Assembly: GCA_035941675.1 (NCBI GenBank)
Contig: DASZDT010000004.1
Coordinates: forward strand, 1,837 to 65,836
Reading direction: 5' to 3'
Length of the DNA: 64,000 nt
Source of the DNA: Chthoniobacterales bacterium
GTDB lineage: Bacteria > Verrucomicrobiota > Verrucomicrobiia > Chthoniobacterales > UBA10450
The notes under the pieces are model-generated. The model had not been told where the DNA came from, did not search any database, and was given only the letters and a program-made list of their open reading frames with translations. A program made the position numbers and the translations under genes. How positions within the stretch are numbered: the stretch's first letter is position 1; each line of letters begins with the position of its first letter. Of this stretch, positions 26,331 to 39,953 are shown one piece after another.

Positions 26331-27704
26331 ATGCCTACCCCTGATAAAGTAGAGCCACGTACCGTTCTCATTAGCAGCCGCATTGACGAGCTCGGTTCCT
26401 CGCGCCGAGCGGCTTTTCGTGCGGTTCACGATGAGGGTTGGATCCCGCTCCTCTATGAAACTGAACCGCTTGCATGGTTAGCCGCCCAGCGACACGCACG
26501 GCGGAAAGGGCAACAGCCTGTTCAACACGTAATGCAGGATAATGAGATCGAACGGTTGACGATGAACAGCCTTCTCAATACTGCCGACCATTTCATTGGC
26601 ATCTACGGGACTTCCCTGGGTGAGCCAAGTCCCCAGCTGAGTGGCCTCCGTCCAATTGAATACGAATTCGTACGCTTTCTGGTGGGCCATGTGTTGGGGA
26701 ACGAGAACGCGAACGAAGAGCGGCTGGCCGATATGTTTCGTTCGAACCCTTCTCCTGCAGGTTTTCGGGCTGCACGGGATAAATTACGACGGGCCGTCAG
26801 AAGCATTTATGACGAGTCAAGCGACTATCACAAAGTGTTCCGTAAGCGGATGGCGTTATACCTTAAGAAGCCGCCGAGCGATGTTTCTCCCCCCTCTTCC
26901 ATGTACGCGATCATCAACAAGTTGCGCCGGGCTGTTCCGGGCGAGCAGATCTGCTTCTTTACGTCTGAATTCGAGCAGGTTGCAAGTGGGGCCGTCGTGT
27001 ATTGCAGACCAAGTTCTCACCTTTATGTGAAGATCCGTTTGCAGATTCAGCAATGGCGTCTTAACGGCGACCTTCCAAACACATCGAGGCCGCAGGGCGG
27101 CGAGTTTTCGTTCGAGGTTGTGTCGCGCGAGCACGTGGGCGCGGTTCTCCACGTCGTGAGATCCATTTTTTACGAGGGCTATAACGTGCGAAAGCTGAGC
27201 TTGGGCATGAACGAACAAGCGGAGCGGGTCATGCACGTCACGGTGAAGCCCTATTTGCACGCTCGAGGTGATCTCCGTGAGCAGCTAAATACACATTACG
27301 GTTGTGAGGTGCGCGACTGCCCAAATCCGCACGCCGTAAAACCCCTTTCGGGCGATGTTGCGATACGGCAACTAGAGATGATCGTCGCCGATCGTCCCGG
27401 GATGTTGGCGCGCGCCTTAGCCGCTCTCGCGCTTCTGGATATGCAAGTGCTCGAAATACGAATGGAAGATGCCGAGCATAGTGGAGGACCGGGCCGTGGG
27501 CCACGTAACCACGTTTGGGTGACCTTCGAGGAATCGCGAGGCTCGGAGGTGAAGAAGGACAAGAGTATGCTTCACGATTTTCAGTTGCCTGACGATCGGC
27601 AATTCAAACTTGACTTCATCGCGGCCGACTTGGCCTCACAACCGGGGTTTTACTCCGTGATTCTTACTAATATGGCGAGCAACGCCTCTCGTGCTCAGAG
27701 TTAA
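26331..27704 (+). CDS. DUF4062-like (TIR/nucleoside-deoxyribosyltransferase-like) N-terminal domain fused to two ACT-like domains, 457 aa
   Basis: N-terminus VLISSRIDELGSSRRAAFRAVHDEGWIPLLYE ... ADHFIGIYGTSLGE ... LRPIEYEF follows my recollection of the DUF4062 consensus (vFiSS..DL..eR......l...G..pv..E ... cDvyvgilG.rYG ... S.TelEy). C-terminus FSFEVVSREHVGAVLHVVRSIFYEGYNVRKLSL and LEMIVADRPGMLARALAALALLDMQVLEIRME are ACT-like. Confidence 0.75.
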   Translation: MPTPDKVEPRTVLISSRIDELGSSRRAAFRAVHDEGWIPLLYETEPLAWLAAQRHARRKGQQPVQHVMQDNEIERLTMNSLLNTADHFIGIYGTSLGEPSPQLSGLRPIEYEFVRFLVGHVLGNENANEERLADMFRSNPSPAGFRAARDKLRRAVRSIYDESSDYHKVFRKRMALYLKKPPSDVSPPSSMYAIINKLRRAVPGEQICFFTSEFEQVASGAVVYCRPSSHLYVKIRLQIQQWRLNGDLPNTSRPQGGEFSFEVVSREHVGAVLHVVRSIFYEGYNVRKLSLGMNEQAERVMHVTVKPYLHARGDLREQLNTHYGCEVRDCPNPHAVKPLSGDVAIRQLEMIVADRPGMLARALAALALLDMQVLEIRMEDAEHSGGPGRGPRNHVWVTFEESRGSEVKKDKSMLHDFQLPDDRQFKLDFIAADLASQPGFYSVILTNMASNASRAQS

Positions 27705-33642: not shown

Positions 33643-33707
33643 CGAGCCGGCAACGTTACTGACGACGGCGCGCGCTCACCAGTGCTAACTCAAGTCTCAA
33701 GACCGGG

Positions 33708-34796
33708 ATGAGGATTACGCTGGAAGATTTGCGGCGGTTTGCGGTGGGGCGGTCGCTCTTCGCGCCGACGACGTTGCCGCGGGCGCTGGACCGGATGGGA
33801 TTTGTGCAGGCCGATCCGATTCGAGCGCCGGCCAGGGCGCAGGATCTGATTCTGCGGCATCGAGTGAAGGGCTATCGGGCCGGCGACTTGGAACGGCGGT
33901 ATGAGGCGCTCGGGGTCGAGGAGGATTTCTTTATCAATTATGGGTTCGTGACCCGCGCGGTGCAGAGGTTGATGCATCCGCGCGCGGAAGAGCGTGTGCC
34001 GGCGGCGGAGCGGAGGAAGGAAAAGCTGCTGCTGGATTTTGTGACGGAGCGCGGCGCGGTGCATCCGCGTGAGGTGGAAGAACATTTTGCGCATGGAACG
34101 GTGCGGAATTACTGGGGCGGCTCGTCCCATGCGACGACCCAAATGCTCGACGCGCTCCATTACCGCGGAATGCTCCGCGTGGCGCGGCGTGAGAAGGGCA
34201 TTCGGCTTTACCGCCGTCACCGGCATGAACCGGCGCAGCTGGACGAAGCAGGCCGGCGGGCGCGGACCGATGCGCTGGTCGATGTGGTGGTGAACATTTA
34301 CGCGCCGCTCCCGGCGGTGAGTCTTTCGTATTATGTGCGCCGGTGGCGTTTCGCCGCGCCGCAATGGGAGAAGGAGATCACCGGGGCGTTGCAGCGCGCT
34401 CGGGAACGGCTGGCGCAGGCCAGGGTGGACGGCCTCGATTGGTACTGGCCTAACGAGGCGAATCCGGGAAAGGCAAGAGAACCAGAAGGCCTCTGGTTCC
34501 TGGCGCCGTTCGACCCGGTGGTGCACGACCGAAAACGTTTCGAGCTGTTGTGGGGCTGGAATTATCGCTTCGAAGCCTATACGCCGGCGCCGAAACGGAA
34601 GCTCGGGTACTACGCGCTGCCGTTGCTCTGGCGCGATCGCGTGATCGGTTGGGCGAATCTCGCGGTGAAGAACGGGAAGCTGGACAGCGAGTTTGGATAC
34701 GCGGCCGGGCGGCCGCCGCGCGATCGTGATTTCAAGCGCGAGCTCGACGCGGAGCTGGAGCGGATGCGGGCGTTTCTCGGAGCGAATGGTCTGTAG
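33708..34796 (+). CDS. YcaQ/AlkZ-like winged-helix protein (DUF1006, crosslink-repair DNA glycosylase family)
   Basis: LDRMGFVQADPIRAPARAQDLILRHRV contains the Q-hydrophobic-D motif of the YcaQ branch. Also WGWNYRFEAYTPAPKRKLGYYALPLLWRDRVIGWANL. Confidence 0.8.
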   Translation: MRITLEDLRRFAVGRSLFAPTTLPRALDRMGFVQADPIRAPARAQDLILRHRVKGYRAGDLERRYEALGVEEDFFINYGFVTRAVQRLMHPRAEERVPAAERRKEKLLLDFVTERGAVHPREVEEHFAHGTVRNYWGGSSHATTQMLDALHYRGMLRVARREKGIRLYRRHRHEPAQLDEAGRRARTDALVDVVVNIYAPLPAVSLSYYVRRWRFAAPQWEKEITGALQRARERLAQARVDGLDWYWPNEANPGKAREPEGLWFLAPFDPVVHDRKRFELLWGWNYRFEAYTPAPKRKLGYYALPLLWRDRVIGWANLAVKNGKLDSEFGYAAGRPPRDRDFKRELDAELERMRAFLGANGL

Positions 34797-34873
34797 CGAC
34801 AACGCTCTGTCGCCGTAAACCGTTGCTTTTGACATGATCCATCTGATTGACAGCGGTTGTGTGCCGAAAAAAT

Positions 34874-37800
34874 TTAGTATTCTGCTTCAAACGAGGGATG
34901 AACCCACAGGAACTCCTGCCGTTTATTCTGCACCCGCACAAGCCCGCCAAAAGTCGGATCCTCTTCCTTTAACCACGCATGCAACTGTCGCAAAACGCCA
35001 CCTTCTGCCCGAATCGTTGTCCCCGCTTGGAGATCTATGCCGTCGTCCTTCGTCAGCCACTCACCGACCTCTCCTCCACCTTTGAGAAGCGATTCTGCCG
35101 TGGCTTTGCCCAGCGCTAGCTGCGCTTCGATTCCCTTATAACTCGTTTCCGGTAGCGCTACCTTTGCCGTCGCGGCGACGACTGGCAGGAGCAACCCGAG
35201 GGTGCTCGATAACACTTTTAGGAAAGGCGCAGCCTTCACTAGCCACTCACGGGGCAAGTCGATCGTGTACGCACCGGCATCCTTGTCGTCCGAGTAAAAC
35301 CAGAGCGGGCGACGGGAATGTTCGCACCAAAGCGTCAGCCGAAACTTCGCGCTTATCCACTTCGGTCGATCGAAGAATCCCGGCTCCGCCGGTTCGAAGC
35401 TAAAGAGCCGTGGCCCTTCCTTTGCCTCGTCCACCACAGTTCGCATCAACGCAGTATAGGCGTCTTCCACCTTGCTGACGATTTCACGTCCTGTCGCATC
35501 GACTCGATCGAAACGGCCGATCACCTGCACTTCGTGCGCCGCCAATTGCACTCGAATATCATCTAAGCGCTGCATCATCTTGTCCTGATGCGTGAGTAAC
35601 TCTTCTATAGGATTCGCTCGCGCGGCCGGGGCATTGTCGAGTAGTTGATCGATATTCTGCCACTCATTGCAAATCGGGCATGGTTGCTCGGGCCTTCCGC
35701 GCTTTTTGTTTTCGAGCAGCTTGCCAACCTCGAACAATCCTTTGCACACATCTCCGTTTGGTAATGGAACGAGACAGGGTACCGTAACGTCGCAGCGAAG
35801 GCCGCCCCAAAAGCTCTCGACCAGCCATTTCACTTCGTAGGTGAGCGCGGAGAGGAAACGCGGCGGATAGGGCGAACGCACCGTGATGCGTACATCGTTG
35901 CCGATGTGCTCCAGAAAGGCGCGTGCTCCTGTGTCGTCCTCCACCACCAGTCCCCGTTGCCAGTGGACGCTGTCTCTGAAGTTCGCGCGGCCCAGGGAGA
36001 ATTTATGCAGGCGCACAATGAGCTGATAGAAAAGCCCCTCGGCAGTGGCGGATTGATTGTTCGCTGTCTCCACAATTCGGCAGATTTGCAATTGTTGCTC
36101 GTCGCCTTGTGCGAGGTCTTCCGGCCAGACACCCTTGAGGTCCGTCTCTGGACGAACGTCGGGCACTAATTGAGCGATCAAGCTCGTGCCGTCTGTATCG
36201 TTTCCGCCGCCCTCCGCAATTCGATAGGACAGATCGAAGCGCTCCATCAGCCGCAAAAAGATCGAGTGTAGCGGAGCCGGGTACCGAAACTCTGGCGCGC
36301 GAGTGCGATGGTTCCACAATTGGCCTAGTCTGCGAAACGTCACGAGGCCGTGGTTATGGCGAGTGTTCTCATCATCTAACACGAAACTTACTGCAGTCGC
36401 CAGCCAGTCGGGTTTAAGCACCACGATGTTCCTCAGCACCGGGTCGTGTTCATAGTGGATTAGATCACCGACGCGGTGGCAGATGCGGATCAGCAGGCTG
36501 GCATCCTCCTCGTCCACCTTGTGCCTCTTGCAGATTGCGTAAACACGATCCAGTGGCAGATACGCCTCCTTGCTCGTCCGCAATGCTTCCCGCGCCTCCT
36601 GCCAGTGTTTCGGGACGCTTCGCCCTACTTCCGGAAGCGACGCTGCTACCTTGGCGATAGCGTTCTTTAAATCCTCGATGCCTTTGCAAGCGCCGGTCCT
36701 CGCTCCGTTTTTTTCGTTCGGCTCTGGGGGTCGACAATCGACGTGAAAGAAATCAATGACCGTGTTTTCGCCAAAAAGATCCCATATTTCCTGTCGGTCG
36801 ATGTCGGGCTGGCGTGCCTCCGGCCCGCCGTGAGTGGCAACGACGAGGATTTTGGCCTCGGGCTCACGATGCTTGACCAACTTGATCCACTCCTTCACGA
36901 AGCCCTGCTGCGGACCTTCGCGTGGCTTCCACACCACCAGGTAAACGGCCGGGGCGCTGAAGAATAATTGGTGCGTTGGGCGATACACCCGCTGCCCGCC
37001 GAAATCCCAGCCATTTAGGGTGATCTCCGTCGCTGTAGCCGGGTCAATTACTTTTACGGGTTTGATCTCGATGCCGTGAGTCGTGGGACGGCCTTCCTGC
37101 CAAGGATCACCTCGCAACGCGCCAAGCAGGGAGCTCTTCCCCACCTCTCCCTCGCCGACTAGAATGAGCTTTGCCTCATTCAGCACAACCTTTGCGGCCG
37201 CCTTAGCGCGCAGATAGCGTTTGATGGCGTCGAGGCCCATCTTGTAGGCGGCGGCGAGTTCAGGGTTCAACGGATTATCGTCGAGGTCGAGGTTGGTTAG
37301 GTGTTCGAGTTGGGCTAATGAAGGGGGCAGGTCCGTCAGACGATTCCCTCCGAAAGTAGTTCCGAGCCCCAGATCGGTAAGTCCTCGCAGTTGACCGATT
37401 TCATCGGGAATCTGACTGATTTCATTGTCATCCAAGTCGAGCCGTTCCAGTGCATGGAGTTCAACTATCCAAGTTGGGACGATTTCGAGATGATTGCTGA
37501 AAAGGGAGAGCAAAGTCAGTTGCGACAAACTCCGTAGCACCTCCGGGAATTCTTTGAGATTGTTTTTTGGCACCCAAAGTTCCCTCAACCGTGTGAGTTC
37601 GCCCAGCGTGTCCGGCAACGCCGCCAGTTGGTTGTCGTAAAGGCTTATCGATTGCAAACGCGTAAGTTGGCCCACCCACTTCGGCAATATCGTCAGTTGA
37701 TTGCTGGAAAGGTCCAACGACTGCAACTGCACGAGCTGGCGCACGCACTCCGGCAGAATCGTCAATTCGTTATGAGAGAGATCCAGCGACCGCAACTGCA

Positions 37801-38290
37801 CGAGCTGGCCCAGCCACTCCGGCGCCACCTTCAGTCGGGTGCTCGAGAGATTGAGCGTCTGCAATTTTGTGAGCTGGCCCAGCGACTCCGGCAGCACGGT
37901 AAGTTGATTGTTGGATAGGTCCAGCGTCTGCAATTGTGTGAGTTCGCCCAGCGATTTCGGCACTATCGTCAGTTGATTGCGGGAGAGGTCCAACGACTGC
38001 AACTGTGTGAGTTCGCTCAGCGATTTCGGCAGCGCCGTCAGTTGATTGCTGGAGAGGTTCAGCGACTGCAACTGTGTGAGCTGGCTCAGTGACTCCGGCA
38101 GCGCTGTCAATTTGTTGCCGGAGAGATCCAATGACTGTAACTGCGTCAGTTGGCCGAGTGACTCCGGCAACTCGGAAAGTTTTGGTCTACTTGCGCCGTG
38201 TTCGCTGCTGAGATCGAGTTTCTTCGCCTTTGAACGCCGCGCTTCATCGATCTTCCTCTCGGCCTCCTGATAAGTCGCGTCTTTACTCAT
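34874..38290 (-). CDS. ROCO protein: 13 LRRs, Roc GTPase, COR, plus an uncharacterised ~340-aa C-terminal module
   Basis: 13 tandem 23-aa LRRs (LTALPESLSQLTQLQSLNLSSNQ type). Roc G1 LILVGEGEVGKSSLL and G3 WDFGGQ. COR-like region (ICHRVGDLIHYEHDPVLRNIVVLKPDWL). C-terminal Cys cluster (CDVTVPC...CKG...CPIC), a coiled coil and a hydrophobic helix (FLKVLSSTLGLLLPVVAATAKVAL). Confidence 0.85.
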   Translation of the reverse strand: MSKDATYQEAERKIDEARRSKAKKLDLSSEHGASRPKLSELPESLGQLTQLQSLDLSGNKLTALPESLSQLTQLQSLNLSSNQLTALPKSLSELTQLQSLDLSRNQLTIVPKSLGELTQLQTLDLSNNQLTVLPESLGQLTKLQTLNLSSTRLKVAPEWLGQLVQLRSLDLSHNELTILPECVRQLVQLQSLDLSSNQLTILPKWVGQLTRLQSISLYDNQLAALPDTLGELTRLRELWVPKNNLKEFPEVLRSLSQLTLLSLFSNHLEIVPTWIVELHALERLDLDDNEISQIPDEIGQLRGLTDLGLGTTFGGNRLTDLPPSLAQLEHLTNLDLDDNPLNPELAAAYKMGLDAIKRYLRAKAAAKVVLNEAKLILVGEGEVGKSSLLGALRGDPWQEGRPTTHGIEIKPVKVIDPATATEITLNGWDFGGQRVYRPTHQLFFSAPAVYLVVWKPREGPQQGFVKEWIKLVKHREPEAKILVVATHGGPEARQPDIDRQEIWDLFGENTVIDFFHVDCRPPEPNEKNGARTGACKGIEDLKNAIAKVAASLPEVGRSVPKHWQEAREALRTSKEAYLPLDRVYAICKRHKVDEEDASLLIRICHRVGDLIHYEHDPVLRNIVVLKPDWLATAVSFVLDDENTRHNHGLVTFRRLGQLWNHRTRAPEFRYPAPLHSIFLRLMERFDLSYRIAEGGGNDTDGTSLIAQLVPDVRPETDLKGVWPEDLAQGDEQQLQICRIVETANNQSATAEGLFYQLIVRLHKFSLGRANFRDSVHWQRGLVVEDDTGARAFLEHIGNDVRITVRSPYPPRFLSALTYEVKWLVESFWGGLRCDVTVPCLVPLPNGDVCKGLFEVGKLLENKKRGRPEQPCPICNEWQNIDQLLDNAPAARANPIEELLTHQDKMMQRLDDIRVQLAAHEVQVIGRFDRVDATGREIVSKVEDAYTALMRTVVDEAKEGPRLFSFEPAEPGFFDRPKWISAKFRLTLWCEHSRRPLWFYSDDKDAGAYTIDLPREWLVKAAPFLKVLSSTLGLLLPVVAATAKVALPETSYKGIEAQLALGKATAESLLKGGGEVGEWLTKDDGIDLQAGTTIRAEGGVLRQLHAWLKEEDPTFGGLVRVQNKRQEFLWVHPSFEAEY
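37268..38179. repeat. tandem 69-bp coding repeats (LRR units) within the ROCO gene
   Basis: Nucleotide-level recurrence of ...gtccaacgactgcaactgtgtgagttcgc.cagcgatttcggca... blocks every 69 nt. Confidence 0.7.
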
Positions 38291-38549
38291 GGATGTTGGG
38301 AGTCAATTCATTGTCCAATTGCTTTGCGGAGAGAGGTCGGCTTCAGCGCGCAGCTACATTGTGACTGACAGATACTCGAAACAGAAAGCGCGCTCCAGAC
38401 GAAACACGACGATGGTGCCGTTGCAAGTCCCTGAGTGTAAACGACGGTGAAAAGTTCGCTCGGCAGAATGTCTCGCCAGCAAGCTGCAAGCGTGCGCTTC
38501 CTGGAACTTGCCGCGATGCGTTTCATCGGCAGATTGCCCCTTCACTTCT

Positions 38550-39953
38550 ATGGCTCAACCGACTCTCGCGCACCAGCTCGCCTCCTTCGCCTGCTCCCTG
38601 AATTTCGAAGATCTCTCGAAGAACGTCGTCCACGAGGTGAAACGGCGGCTGATCGATTCACTGGGGTGCGCGCTCGGAGCGTGGAACGAAGAGCCGTGCA
38701 CGATCGCGCGCGAGGTCGTCTCGGATTTTTCGGCCAGGAACGGCGCGACGGTTTTCGGCACGTCGCACAAGGCGCCGCCGGATTGGGCGGCGTTCGCGAA
38801 CGGCTGCCAGATTCGCTATTTCGATTACAACGACACCTATCTCTCGAAAGAGCCGGCGCATCCGAGCGACAATTTTGCAGCGGTGCTCGCGGTGGGCGAG
38901 AGCGTTGGCGCGACCGGCAAGGAAATGATCCTGGCGACGGCGATCGCGTATGAAGTGCAATGCCGCCTCTGCGATGCCGCCAGCATTCGGGCTCGCGGCT
39001 GGGATCATCCGACCTATGGCGCGTTCTCGACCGCGCTGGCCTGCGCGAAATTGATGCAGCTCGATCCGGAACGGACCCGGCACGCCATCAATATCGCGGG
39101 CGTGCATTGCGCGGCTTTCCGGCAGGCGCGGGTGGGGGAACTTTCGCATTGGAAGGGTGTAGCATTCGCGAACGCGGCGCGGCTCGGCGCTTACGCGGCG
39201 TTATTGGCCCGCGCCGGCATGACCGGCCCGGCGCCGATTTTCGAAGGCACCATGGGATTCGAAAAAGAACTGGGCGTGTCGTTAGGCAACGTGCGCGAGG
39301 TGTTCGACAAGACAAAGGAAGCGATGCCCGGCGAAGGACCGGCGTCGATGATTTTGAAGACGAGCATCAAGTATTGGCCCGCGGAATATCACAGCCAGAG
39401 CGCGATCGAAGCCGCGCTCTTTTTGCGCAACCAGATCCAGGACTTGTCGCAGGTAAAAACGATGGTGATCGAGAGTCACGACGCGTCGGTCGATATTATC
39501 GGGAGCGAACCGGAGAAATGGCATCCGCAAAGCCGCGAGACCGCCGATCACAGTTTGCCTTACATCACGGCGGTGGCGTTGATCGACGGCGAAGTGACCG
39601 ACAAGCAGTTCGCGCCCGAGCGGTTCACGGAGACCGGGATTGTTTCATTTCTCCAGGGCGTGAAGGTGGAGCGCAACGATGAGTTGAGCGCTCTCTACGC
39701 GGAAGCGGTCGCGAACATTGTTCACGTCAATCTCGCGGACGGACGGACGCTAACGAAGCGGGTCGATTACCCATTGGGGAACGCGAAGAACCGGTTGAAA
39801 GATTCCGAGCTCGAAGGAAAATTCGTGAACCTCGCCGCTCCGAAAATCGGTAAAGAGGCGGCTGATCGCGTCCTGGAACTGGGCTGGAAGTTCGATGAGG
39901 CGGGTAACGTTTCAGAACTGATGAAGTCGCTCGAAATGCCGGCCCGCTCATGA
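38550..39953 (+). CDS. prpD: 2-methylcitrate dehydratase
   Basis: MmgE/PrpD-family motifs (DSLGCALGA, YFDYNDTYL, HPSDNFAAVLAVGE, DHSLPYITAVALIDG). ATG 38550 chosen. Operon with prpB and prpC. Confidence 0.9.
   Translation: MAQPTLAHQLASFACSLNFEDLSKNVVHEVKRRLIDSLGCALGAWNEEPCTIAREVVSDFSARNGATVFGTSHKAPPDWAAFANGCQIRYFDYNDTYLSKEPAHPSDNFAAVLAVGESVGATGKEMILATAIAYEVQCRLCDAASIRARGWDHPTYGAFSTALACAKLMQLDPERTRHAINIAGVHCAAFRQARVGELSHWKGVAFANAARLGAYAALLARAGMTGPAPIFEGTMGFEKELGVSLGNVREVFDKTKEAMPGEGPASMILKTSIKYWPAEYHSQSAIEAALFLRNQIQDLSQVKTMVIESHDASVDIIGSEPEKWHPQSRETADHSLPYITAVALIDGEVTDKQFAPERFTETGIVSFLQGVKVERNDELSALYAEAVANIVHVNLADGRTLTKRVDYPLGNAKNRLKDSELEGKFVNLAAPKIGKEAADRVLELGWKFDEAGNVSELMKSLEMPARS

Follow-up and report, generated by a model that had tools for sequence, protein, structure and literature searches.

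The window analysed here, a stretch of 64,000 nucleotides of contig DASZDT010000004.1 from a soil-dwelling Chthoniobacterales bacterium, encodes a ROCO protein, P0001, in which leucine-rich repeats (LRRs) precede a Roc GTPase and a COR domain, and which ends in a compact domain, hereafter called CT. This domain is discrete, autonomous and widespread, and it is named in no library. Together with a zinc-knuckle-like COR-B, the unnamed, conserved C-terminal CT defines a large and mobile ROCO subfamily. As a whole, the protein can be read as an NLR-like conflict or immune switch, with the LRRs as sensor, Roc-COR as switch and CT as output, a reading that we give an even chance. The features of the gene are as follows.

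34874..38290, minus strand: monocistronic ROCO gene P0001, 1138 amino acids (aa) (list of open reading frames (ORFs) and translation, Pfam)
34877..35440, minus strand: CT core, aa ~951-1138, alpha/beta (AlphaFold2 (AF2) model: five-stranded sheet and long helical hairpin)
35318..35326, minus strand: codons of C989-E990-H991 (column conservation in 88 diverse CT domains)
35153..35251, minus strand: first hairpin helix of CT, aa 1014-1046, with the hydrophobic stretch FLKVLSSTLGLLLPVVAATAKVAL (AF2, helix 90-121 of the model)
35441..35632, minus strand: helical/coiled-coil linker, aa 887-950 (helices in both AF2 models)
35633..36040, minus strand: COR-B, aa 751-886 (Pfam PF25497, 3.3e-21, profile positions 15-145 of 145)
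35660..35794, minus strand: Cys cluster in COR-B, aa 833-877 (C839 ... C849 ... C871-x2-C874, conserved among homologues)
36164..36613, minus strand: COR-A, aa 560-709 (Pfam PF16095, 2.5e-35)
36656..37171, minus strand: Roc GTPase domain, aa 374-545 (Pfam Roc, 6.4e-21, match aa 374-487; motif conservation)
37256..38158, minus strand: LRR region, aa 45-345, ~13 repeats of 23 residues (Pfam LRR_8, 1.2e-41)
34797..38507, no strand: segment of 3.7 kb inserted with respect to the congener G014, made of the ROCO gene and its own flanks (flank alignment)

The original prediction held that the final ~340 aa of the protein match nothing. This is correct for aa 887-1138, a span of ~250 aa without assignment that consists of the linker and the CT core, and not for the residues up to aa 886, which lie inside Pfam COR-B. 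The linker (aa 887-950) is absent from the fusions of CT to proteins other than ROCO, and these fusions place the N-terminal boundary of the domain at ~aa 936-950. A search with the tail returned 920 proteins of ROCO length, 55-86% identical, with CT at the extreme C-terminus in all full-length matches. A CT profile found 836 clusters among 1.84 billion representatives (458 of them at E 1e-10 or better), counted as clusters at 50% identity. Among the matches listed that have at least 400 residues, all but two are Roc-COR-CT proteins or fragments of these. Neither CT nor the tail, as single sequence or as profile, matched Pfam, NCBIfam or the PDB sequences; nothing fell below E 0.07 in Pfam or PDB.

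The structure of CT was predicted twice with AF2. The first run, with 32 close sequences, was poor (predicted local distance difference test, pLDDT, 53.7); the second, with 88 diverse sequences, gave a confident model (pLDDT 81.5). In the model, an N-terminal helix and three strands lead into a long helical hairpin (model residues 90-121 and 124-147); behind a disordered loop lie one more helix, a beta-hairpin and a short C-terminal helix. P960, L987, C989 and E990 are invariant in 88 of the 88 diverse sequences, and D954, G959, R961, L962, F963, P995, G1006, Y1008, W1016, P1022, D1111, L1117, V1120, W1129 and H1131 are conserved at 90% or more; H991 reaches 88%. This polar constellation on the sheet suggests an active or ligand-binding site. 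In Foldseek the best matches of the model had an E of 0.44 in the PDB and of 0.17 among the BFVD viral models, a feature search of the ESM Atlas with CT gave no usable match, and the Atlas shape search returned other ROCO proteins only. As far as the predicted model can tell, no fold is recognised for CT, the whole-domain model having been searched, and a new fold is not claimed. A predicted CT homodimer scored 0.00, which is evidence neither way.

One enzymatic assignment was considered. The WCEH motif of CT resembles the NCEHF motif of the NlpC/P60-LRAT acyltransferases, whose papain-like fold places the catalytic Cys at the N-terminus of a helix. The family and structure searches do not support such a kinship: 0 of the 88 CT sequences match NlpC/P60 or LRAT families at E ≤1, and no such fold occurs among the structural matches. 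In the model, C989 terminates a beta-strand and is followed by coil.

CT is also found without Roc-COR. In P0299 it is fused to a TIR domain (aa 4-123), in P0278 to DUF4062 and in P0260 to a 195-aa N-terminus without known family; the N-termini of P0243 and P0313 are likewise without known family. The genes of P0299, P0278 and P0260 each lie directly downstream of hsdS, the type I restriction specificity gene, and that of P0260 is followed by a gene for a Shedu-type nuclease and by a PIN-TPR-GreABC gene. The TIR of P0299 and the DUF4062 of P0278 match PADLOC models. For the N-termini of P0243 and P0260, no match was found among the PDB sequences; for that of P0260, the Atlas hinted weakly (0.83) at NACHT N-terminal helical domains. 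TIR-CT and DUF4062-CT are singletons, and the CT domains closest to that of TIR-CT belong to ROCO fragments, at 43-45% identity. These rare fusions tie CT to conflict-type proteins, inside restriction-modification loci.

On the contig of P0299 (GCA_020051655.1), hsdS is followed by large genes in a row, which encode TPR proteins, TIR-CT and an 829-aa protein without assignment. Most of these large genes are trailed directly by a 46-aa ORF that overlaps both flanking genes by 4 nt, and the small ORFs look like copies of one small partner gene, or of some element that recurs along the row.

Some ROCO-CT proteins carry additional N-terminal modules: AAA_35 and TIR, Metallophos, or an nSTAND5 NTPase. 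The Metallophos domain matches the PADLOC model of a CBASS-type nuclease effector. In locus L007 (6122-12509), the gene of P0246 (AAA_35-TIR-LRR-Roc-COR-CT) is preceded by a PNP_UDP_1-AAA_35 gene, with overlapping stop and start, and a NACHT/NB-ARC-like HEAT-repeat protein is encoded nearby. PNP_UDP_1 is nucleoside phosphorylase-like, and the two adjoining proteins may be a paired AAA_35 conflict module.

The remainder of P0001 is a canonical ROCO protein in its layout. The reading frame at 34874-38290 (minus) is uninterrupted over its 1138 aa, and both Pfam and the motifs agree with the original prediction of a single LRR-Roc-COR ORF with 13 LRRs, GEGEVGKS, DFGGQ and COR: 12 of the repeats are regular units of 23 residues and one is irregular, and a Roc domain with P-loop and switch II motifs is followed by COR-A and COR-B. 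Homologous proteins range from ~800 to 1450 aa, with a varying number of LRRs and a constant tail. At the DNA level, seven 69-nt tandem coding units (window 37523-38212) correspond to the N-terminal LRRs; compared in frames of 276 nt, they share 62-71% identity with the reference copy. The LRR units have been duplicated recently.

The rate of change differs strongly between the domains. Expressed as medians against 100 full-length homologues, identity is 46.6% in the LRRs, of which just 71% is alignable, compared to 79% in Roc, 62% in COR-A, 81% in the N-terminal part of COR-B, 68% in its Cys part, 50% in the linker and 63.5% in the CT core. Hence, the sensor-like repeats vary, and the switch and the tail are held constant. 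This is the NLR-type layout that had been proposed, with the LRRs as the most variable part and presumably those that sense the trigger.

In the Roc domain, the G1 motif GEGEVGKS (aa 379-386; GEGEVGKS/T in the family), T404 of switch I and the G3 motif DFGGQ (aa 429-433) are invariant across 77 homologues. The canonical G4 motif, which confers guanine specificity, is (N/T)(K/H)xD (THxD/NKxD). In all 77 of the 77 subfamily members checked it reads THGG (aa 486-489, window 36824-36835), so the Asp of the fourth position is absent; two invariant Asp residues, D496 and D498 (RQPDID), follow 7-9 residues after THGG. Judged from these motifs, the nucleotide specificity may differ from that of other ROCO proteins. 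The membership of the ROCO family is unaffected by the atypical G4, as the family is defined by the Roc-COR tandem.

The Cys cluster had been assigned to the novel C-terminal module. The cysteines are indeed present (C833, C839, C849, C871 and C874), but the cluster belongs to the tail end of COR-B. None of the 148 homologues lacks C839, C871 or C874; a fourth Cys is found at position 849 in 83 of these sequences and at position 843 in 61. The COR-B of the ROCO-TIR paralogue of Chlorobaculum limnaeum is without such cysteines. The arrangement (C-x(n)-C ... C-x2-C) is probably a subfamily-specific, zinc-knuckle-like element, which would bind zinc.

A scan of one genome per species revealed close Roc-COR relatives in 278 species genomes. 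The best 80 of these 278 are 62-86% identical over 517 residues and come from at least nine phyla (Verrucomicrobiota, Planctomycetota, Acidobacteriota, Chlorobi, Bacteroidota, Chloroflexota, Cyanobacteria, Desulfobacterota and Proteobacteria). CT is carried by 75 of them, in most of which COR is followed by 252-253 residues; in the remaining five, the gene runs off the contig or is interrupted. Domain shuffling of the C-terminal module, for which the original prediction suggested a check, is seen in the rare TIR, DUF4062 and other N-terminal fusions, but not in the family at large: CT is the fixed tail of one ROCO subfamily rather than a freely shuffled effector. In five of ~77 otherwise complete loci (L027, L081, L056, L059 and L105), the Roc-COR frame is interrupted or CT is truncated, and these are either pseudogenes or assembly errors of metagenome bins.

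Upstream of the ROCO gene lies prpD-prpB-prpC, transcribed divergently, and downstream is the gene for an AlkZ-like DNA glycosylase (33708-34796, plus strand), in convergent orientation. The position between these genes, the monocistronic nature and the higher AT content had all been described correctly, with a GC content of 0.563 in the ROCO gene, compared to 0.602 in the window, 0.644 in AlkZ and 0.613 in prpDBC. Within the genus, the gene is patchy: among 61 related genomes, CT is present in 3, two of which belong to the 36 other species of the genus. In the congener G014 (locus L021), with a PrpD of 92% identity, just 108 bp lie between AlkZ and prpD, and its flanks align to window 34640-34779 and 38507-38655. 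In G019 (locus L023), the AlkZ-prpD site is occupied by a MacB/FtsX-type permease gene, and a ROCO-CT gene, 70% identical, is located elsewhere, between the glycogen synthase and pyrophosphatase genes. In a metagenomic relative, the ROCO gene likewise lies beside prpD. Within the genus, the site flanked by the AlkZ-like gene and prpD is variable; no recombinase or repeats mark the insertion, and the flanking direct repeats seen on other cassettes of the source genome were not found at the ROCO gene.

The patchy occurrence within a genus, at an identity of 62-86% across phyla, indicates horizontal spread. The ROCO gene is accessory, horizontally acquired and clearly not housekeeping. No CT was found in phage genomes, and plasmids contained no CT, just distant ROCOs of ~24% identity. 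Nor was a conserved partner gene found across the 80 loci, beyond the synteny within genera.

An immune-sensor role for bacterial ROCOs in general has already been proposed in print, on computational grounds. Kaur, Iyer, Burroughs & Aravind (eLife 2021, PMC8195603) predicted bacterial AP-GTPase (Roc)-COR proteins with fast-evolving LRRs to be counter-invader systems. For the C-terminal slot, they described no fewer than 24 different domains, read as effectors, among which TIR, DrHyd, caspase, trypsin, FGS, GT4, EADs, TM and DUF4404 are listed. The protein of the window has the same fast-evolving LRRs, AP-GTPase, COR and C-terminal slot, and the same sporadic distribution and horizontal spread. 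Many hosts of ROCO-CT are filamentous or multicellular (Nostoc, Scytonema, Chloroflexota, cable bacteria), as in those systems, and here too the LRRs evolve faster than the switch (46.6% vs. 79% for Roc and 81% for COR-B). In contrast, CT is absent from the listed C-terminal domains, the subfamily of the window has a Cys4 knuckle in COR-B, and the slot is filled by a conserved domain that matches no effector, adaptor or fold. In the source table of that study, a 1268-aa protein of Scytonema sp. NIES-4073 is given as plain 'LRR-repeats+AP-GTPase+COR' (PMC8195603). Based on organism and length alone, this appears to be the CT-bearing ORF of locus L072, in which case CT was left unnamed there. 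Chlorobaculum limnaeum has one ROCO of the CT type and one of the TIR type; a displacement of CT by TIR was rejected for this pair, as the ROCO-TIR is merely 24% identical and too distant.

Two groups of ROCO proteins offer a comparison. CtRoco of Chlorobaculum tepidum (PDB 6hlu, 8r4b) is also a bacterial LRR-Roc-COR protein, to which phmmer aligns aa 337-683 of P0001 with an E of 7.6e-39. Its last 150 residues, after COR-B, are invisible in cryo-EM (PMC11052575). No sequence similarity was found between this C-terminal region and CT, with single sequence or profile, and phmmer gave no alignment between the COR-B of CtRoco and that of P0001. In CtRoco, GTP binding opens the LRR and converts dimers to monomers (PMC11052575); this cycle, shown for CtRoco, is just assumed for the ROCO of the window. 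LRRK2, LRRK1 and DAPK1 share the order LRR-Roc-COR-output, and aa 24-693 of P0001 align to LRRK2 (phmmer, E 2.7e-40). Their output is a protein kinase, with WD40 in LRRK2, whereas the ROCO of the window has an unrelated 190-aa alpha/beta domain and the G4 THGG.

Put together, these data allow a working model for the NLR-like switch. The fast-evolving LRRs would detect a trigger, upon which the Roc-COR nucleotide switch would alter its conformation or oligomeric state, as in CtRoco and LRRK2. CT would be the output, in the post-COR slot where other ROCOs bear a kinase, TIR, caspase or nuclease. It would most probably work through the polar cluster of Cys989-Glu990-His991, Asp954, Arg961, Asp1111 and His1131, either as an enzyme or by binding a conserved target in the cell. 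The hydrophobic hairpin would serve in packing, oligomerisation or peripheral contact with the membrane, rather than as a classical membrane span. Since no partner gene accompanies the family, sensor, switch and output would reside in one chain. We infer the immune role, the sensing by the LRRs and the activity of CT; the main argument for CT as effector is that, if the LRRs are the sensor and Roc-COR is the switch, CT is the sole candidate for the output.

The most far-reaching form of this model is put forward tentatively, as possible though doubtful. CT would then be a new immune executioner, either a Cys-Glu-His enzyme or a conditionally membrane-inserting hairpin, and LRR-Roc-COR-CT a widespread antiviral system, made of one gene and controlled by a GTPase switch, which would occur in at least 278 species and 836 clusters and be missed by the catalogues because it sits outside defence islands.

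Several observations weigh against a conflict switch with CT as its output. PADLOC gave no match for the whole ROCO protein, and CT is without a recognisable effector fold or family; the effector-like fold looked for in the C-terminal module was found neither in the AF2 model nor in the fold searches. No replacement of CT by a known effector on the same chassis occurs among the 80 relatives. The enrichment of homologues in defence islands, also looked for, was not seen: the 96 immediate neighbours of 75 homologues match 117 Pfam families, none typical of defence, five long homologue contexts consist of metabolic or housekeeping genes without enrichment of defence genes, and the full-length genes lie amid housekeeping genes. 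The source genome has one copy of CT, a count that covers CT only and not other Roc-COR genes, compared to the multi-paralogue pattern of the conflict ROCOs. A literature search found no experimental study of a defence role of any bacterial ROCO. The strongest counter-argument is one of analogy: in TIR-CT and DUF4062-CT, the usual layout, with the effector at the N-terminus and the sensor or regulator at the C-terminus, would give CT a regulatory role. Of the conflict role originally proposed, the gene that is not housekeeping and the association of CT with TIR and DUF4062 speak in favour; the constant tail, the lack of defence loci and the lack of an effector fold do not.

The alternative that survives best is that CT is a regulatory module (a sensor, a ligand-binding domain or one for triggered oligomerisation) that controls the fused TIR, DUF4062 or Roc-COR; it is rather unlikely. 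In that case, the plain ROCO-CT proteins would have an unlinked partner in the host, or the GTPase cycle itself, as their output. TIR-CT and DUF4062-CT combine an N-terminal NADase-type effector with a C-terminal constant domain, a two-part layout shared with TIR-SAVED, TIR-STING, TIR-APAZ and the DUF4062 NADases, in restriction-modification loci. In TIR-SAVED, TIR-STING and TIR-APAZ, the C-terminal domain is the sensor or regulator. CT is, however, unrelated to SAVED, STING and APAZ by sequence and fold search, and the ROCO of the window is without TIR or DUF4062. Classical effectors (TIR, Metallophos nuclease) are also N-terminal on some ROCO-CT proteins, the invariant polar pocket could hold a small ligand, and CT follows the part of COR-B that forms the dimer interface in CtRoco (PMC11052575). 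On the other hand, more than 95% of the family would then be without an effector, and no conserved neighbour gene supplies one. The post-COR slot typically holds an effector or kinase in other ROCOs (PMC8195603). Fast divergence is usual among phage-sensing domains, but CT keeps 46-90% identity from phylum to phylum.

A membrane-active CT is improbable. In this case, the helix or hairpin would insert in the inner membrane and depolarise or permeabilise the cell, as abortive infection. The hydrophobic stretch on which the original prediction based its membrane-inserting helix, aa 1023-1046, exists, and the long helical hairpin has a hydrophobic first helix with a Kyte-Doolittle 19-residue mean of 1.73. 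The hydrophobic character is retained across the family, and the published ROCO catalogue, with ~290 text matches to 'COR+TM', indicates that membrane outputs exist in this slot. However, the helix includes Lys, Pro, Ser, Thr and Gly, and a rough sum on the Hessa scale comes to ~+4 kcal/mol, short of what a transmembrane segment would need. The hairpin is kept in character and not in sequence, it is less hydrophobic in divergent members, where several helix positions are polar, and the strongest conservation lies in the polar residues of the beta-sheet instead of the hairpin. By its composition, the helix ranks as marginal and is probably not transmembrane-grade.

The least probable explanation is an ordinary signalling GTPase without a conflict role (e.g., in development, motility or stress), with CT as a structural or dimerisation extension of COR: the housekeeping surroundings without adjacent defence genes, the constant, strongly conserved tail expected of such an extension and the effector fold that was not found would fit, but the horizontal spread (patchy within the genus, high identity across phyla), the insertion or absence at the AlkZ-prpD site in congeners, the variable and recently duplicated LRRs and the reuse of CT with TIR and DUF4062 inside restriction-modification loci would not, and a pure scaffold would hardly account for the invariant Cys-Glu and the further polar residues.

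In the window itself, the remaining defence-like cassettes are at least 6.5 kb away from the ROCO gene. A DUF4062-ACT-ACT gene is located at 26331-27704, ~7 kb from it, and DUF4062 is the domain fused to CT in P0278; this proximity is probably a coincidence, though both domains share a habitat. A minus-strand ORF of 381 aa (33690-34835), rich in Arg, Pro and His and without a family, was discarded as spurious: it runs antisense to the gene of the AlkZ-like glycosylase and is almost certainly an artefact of it.

Bacterial ROCOs serve as structural models for LRRK2, the Parkinson's disease kinase, and no experimental paper on their bacterial function was found. A subfamily with a near-invariant switch and one compact output domain is a clean system to find out what a Roc-COR switch controls, and K385, Q433, C989, E990 and H1131 are offered as residues for mutation. 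If the immune reading is true, the family would be an NLR-like defence that consists of one gene, works through a GTPase and has a new effector fold, and such genes could sit outside defence islands, beyond the reach of guilt-by-association screens. Should it fail, CT would nevertheless make up an unnamed family of several hundred clusters, which merits a database entry.

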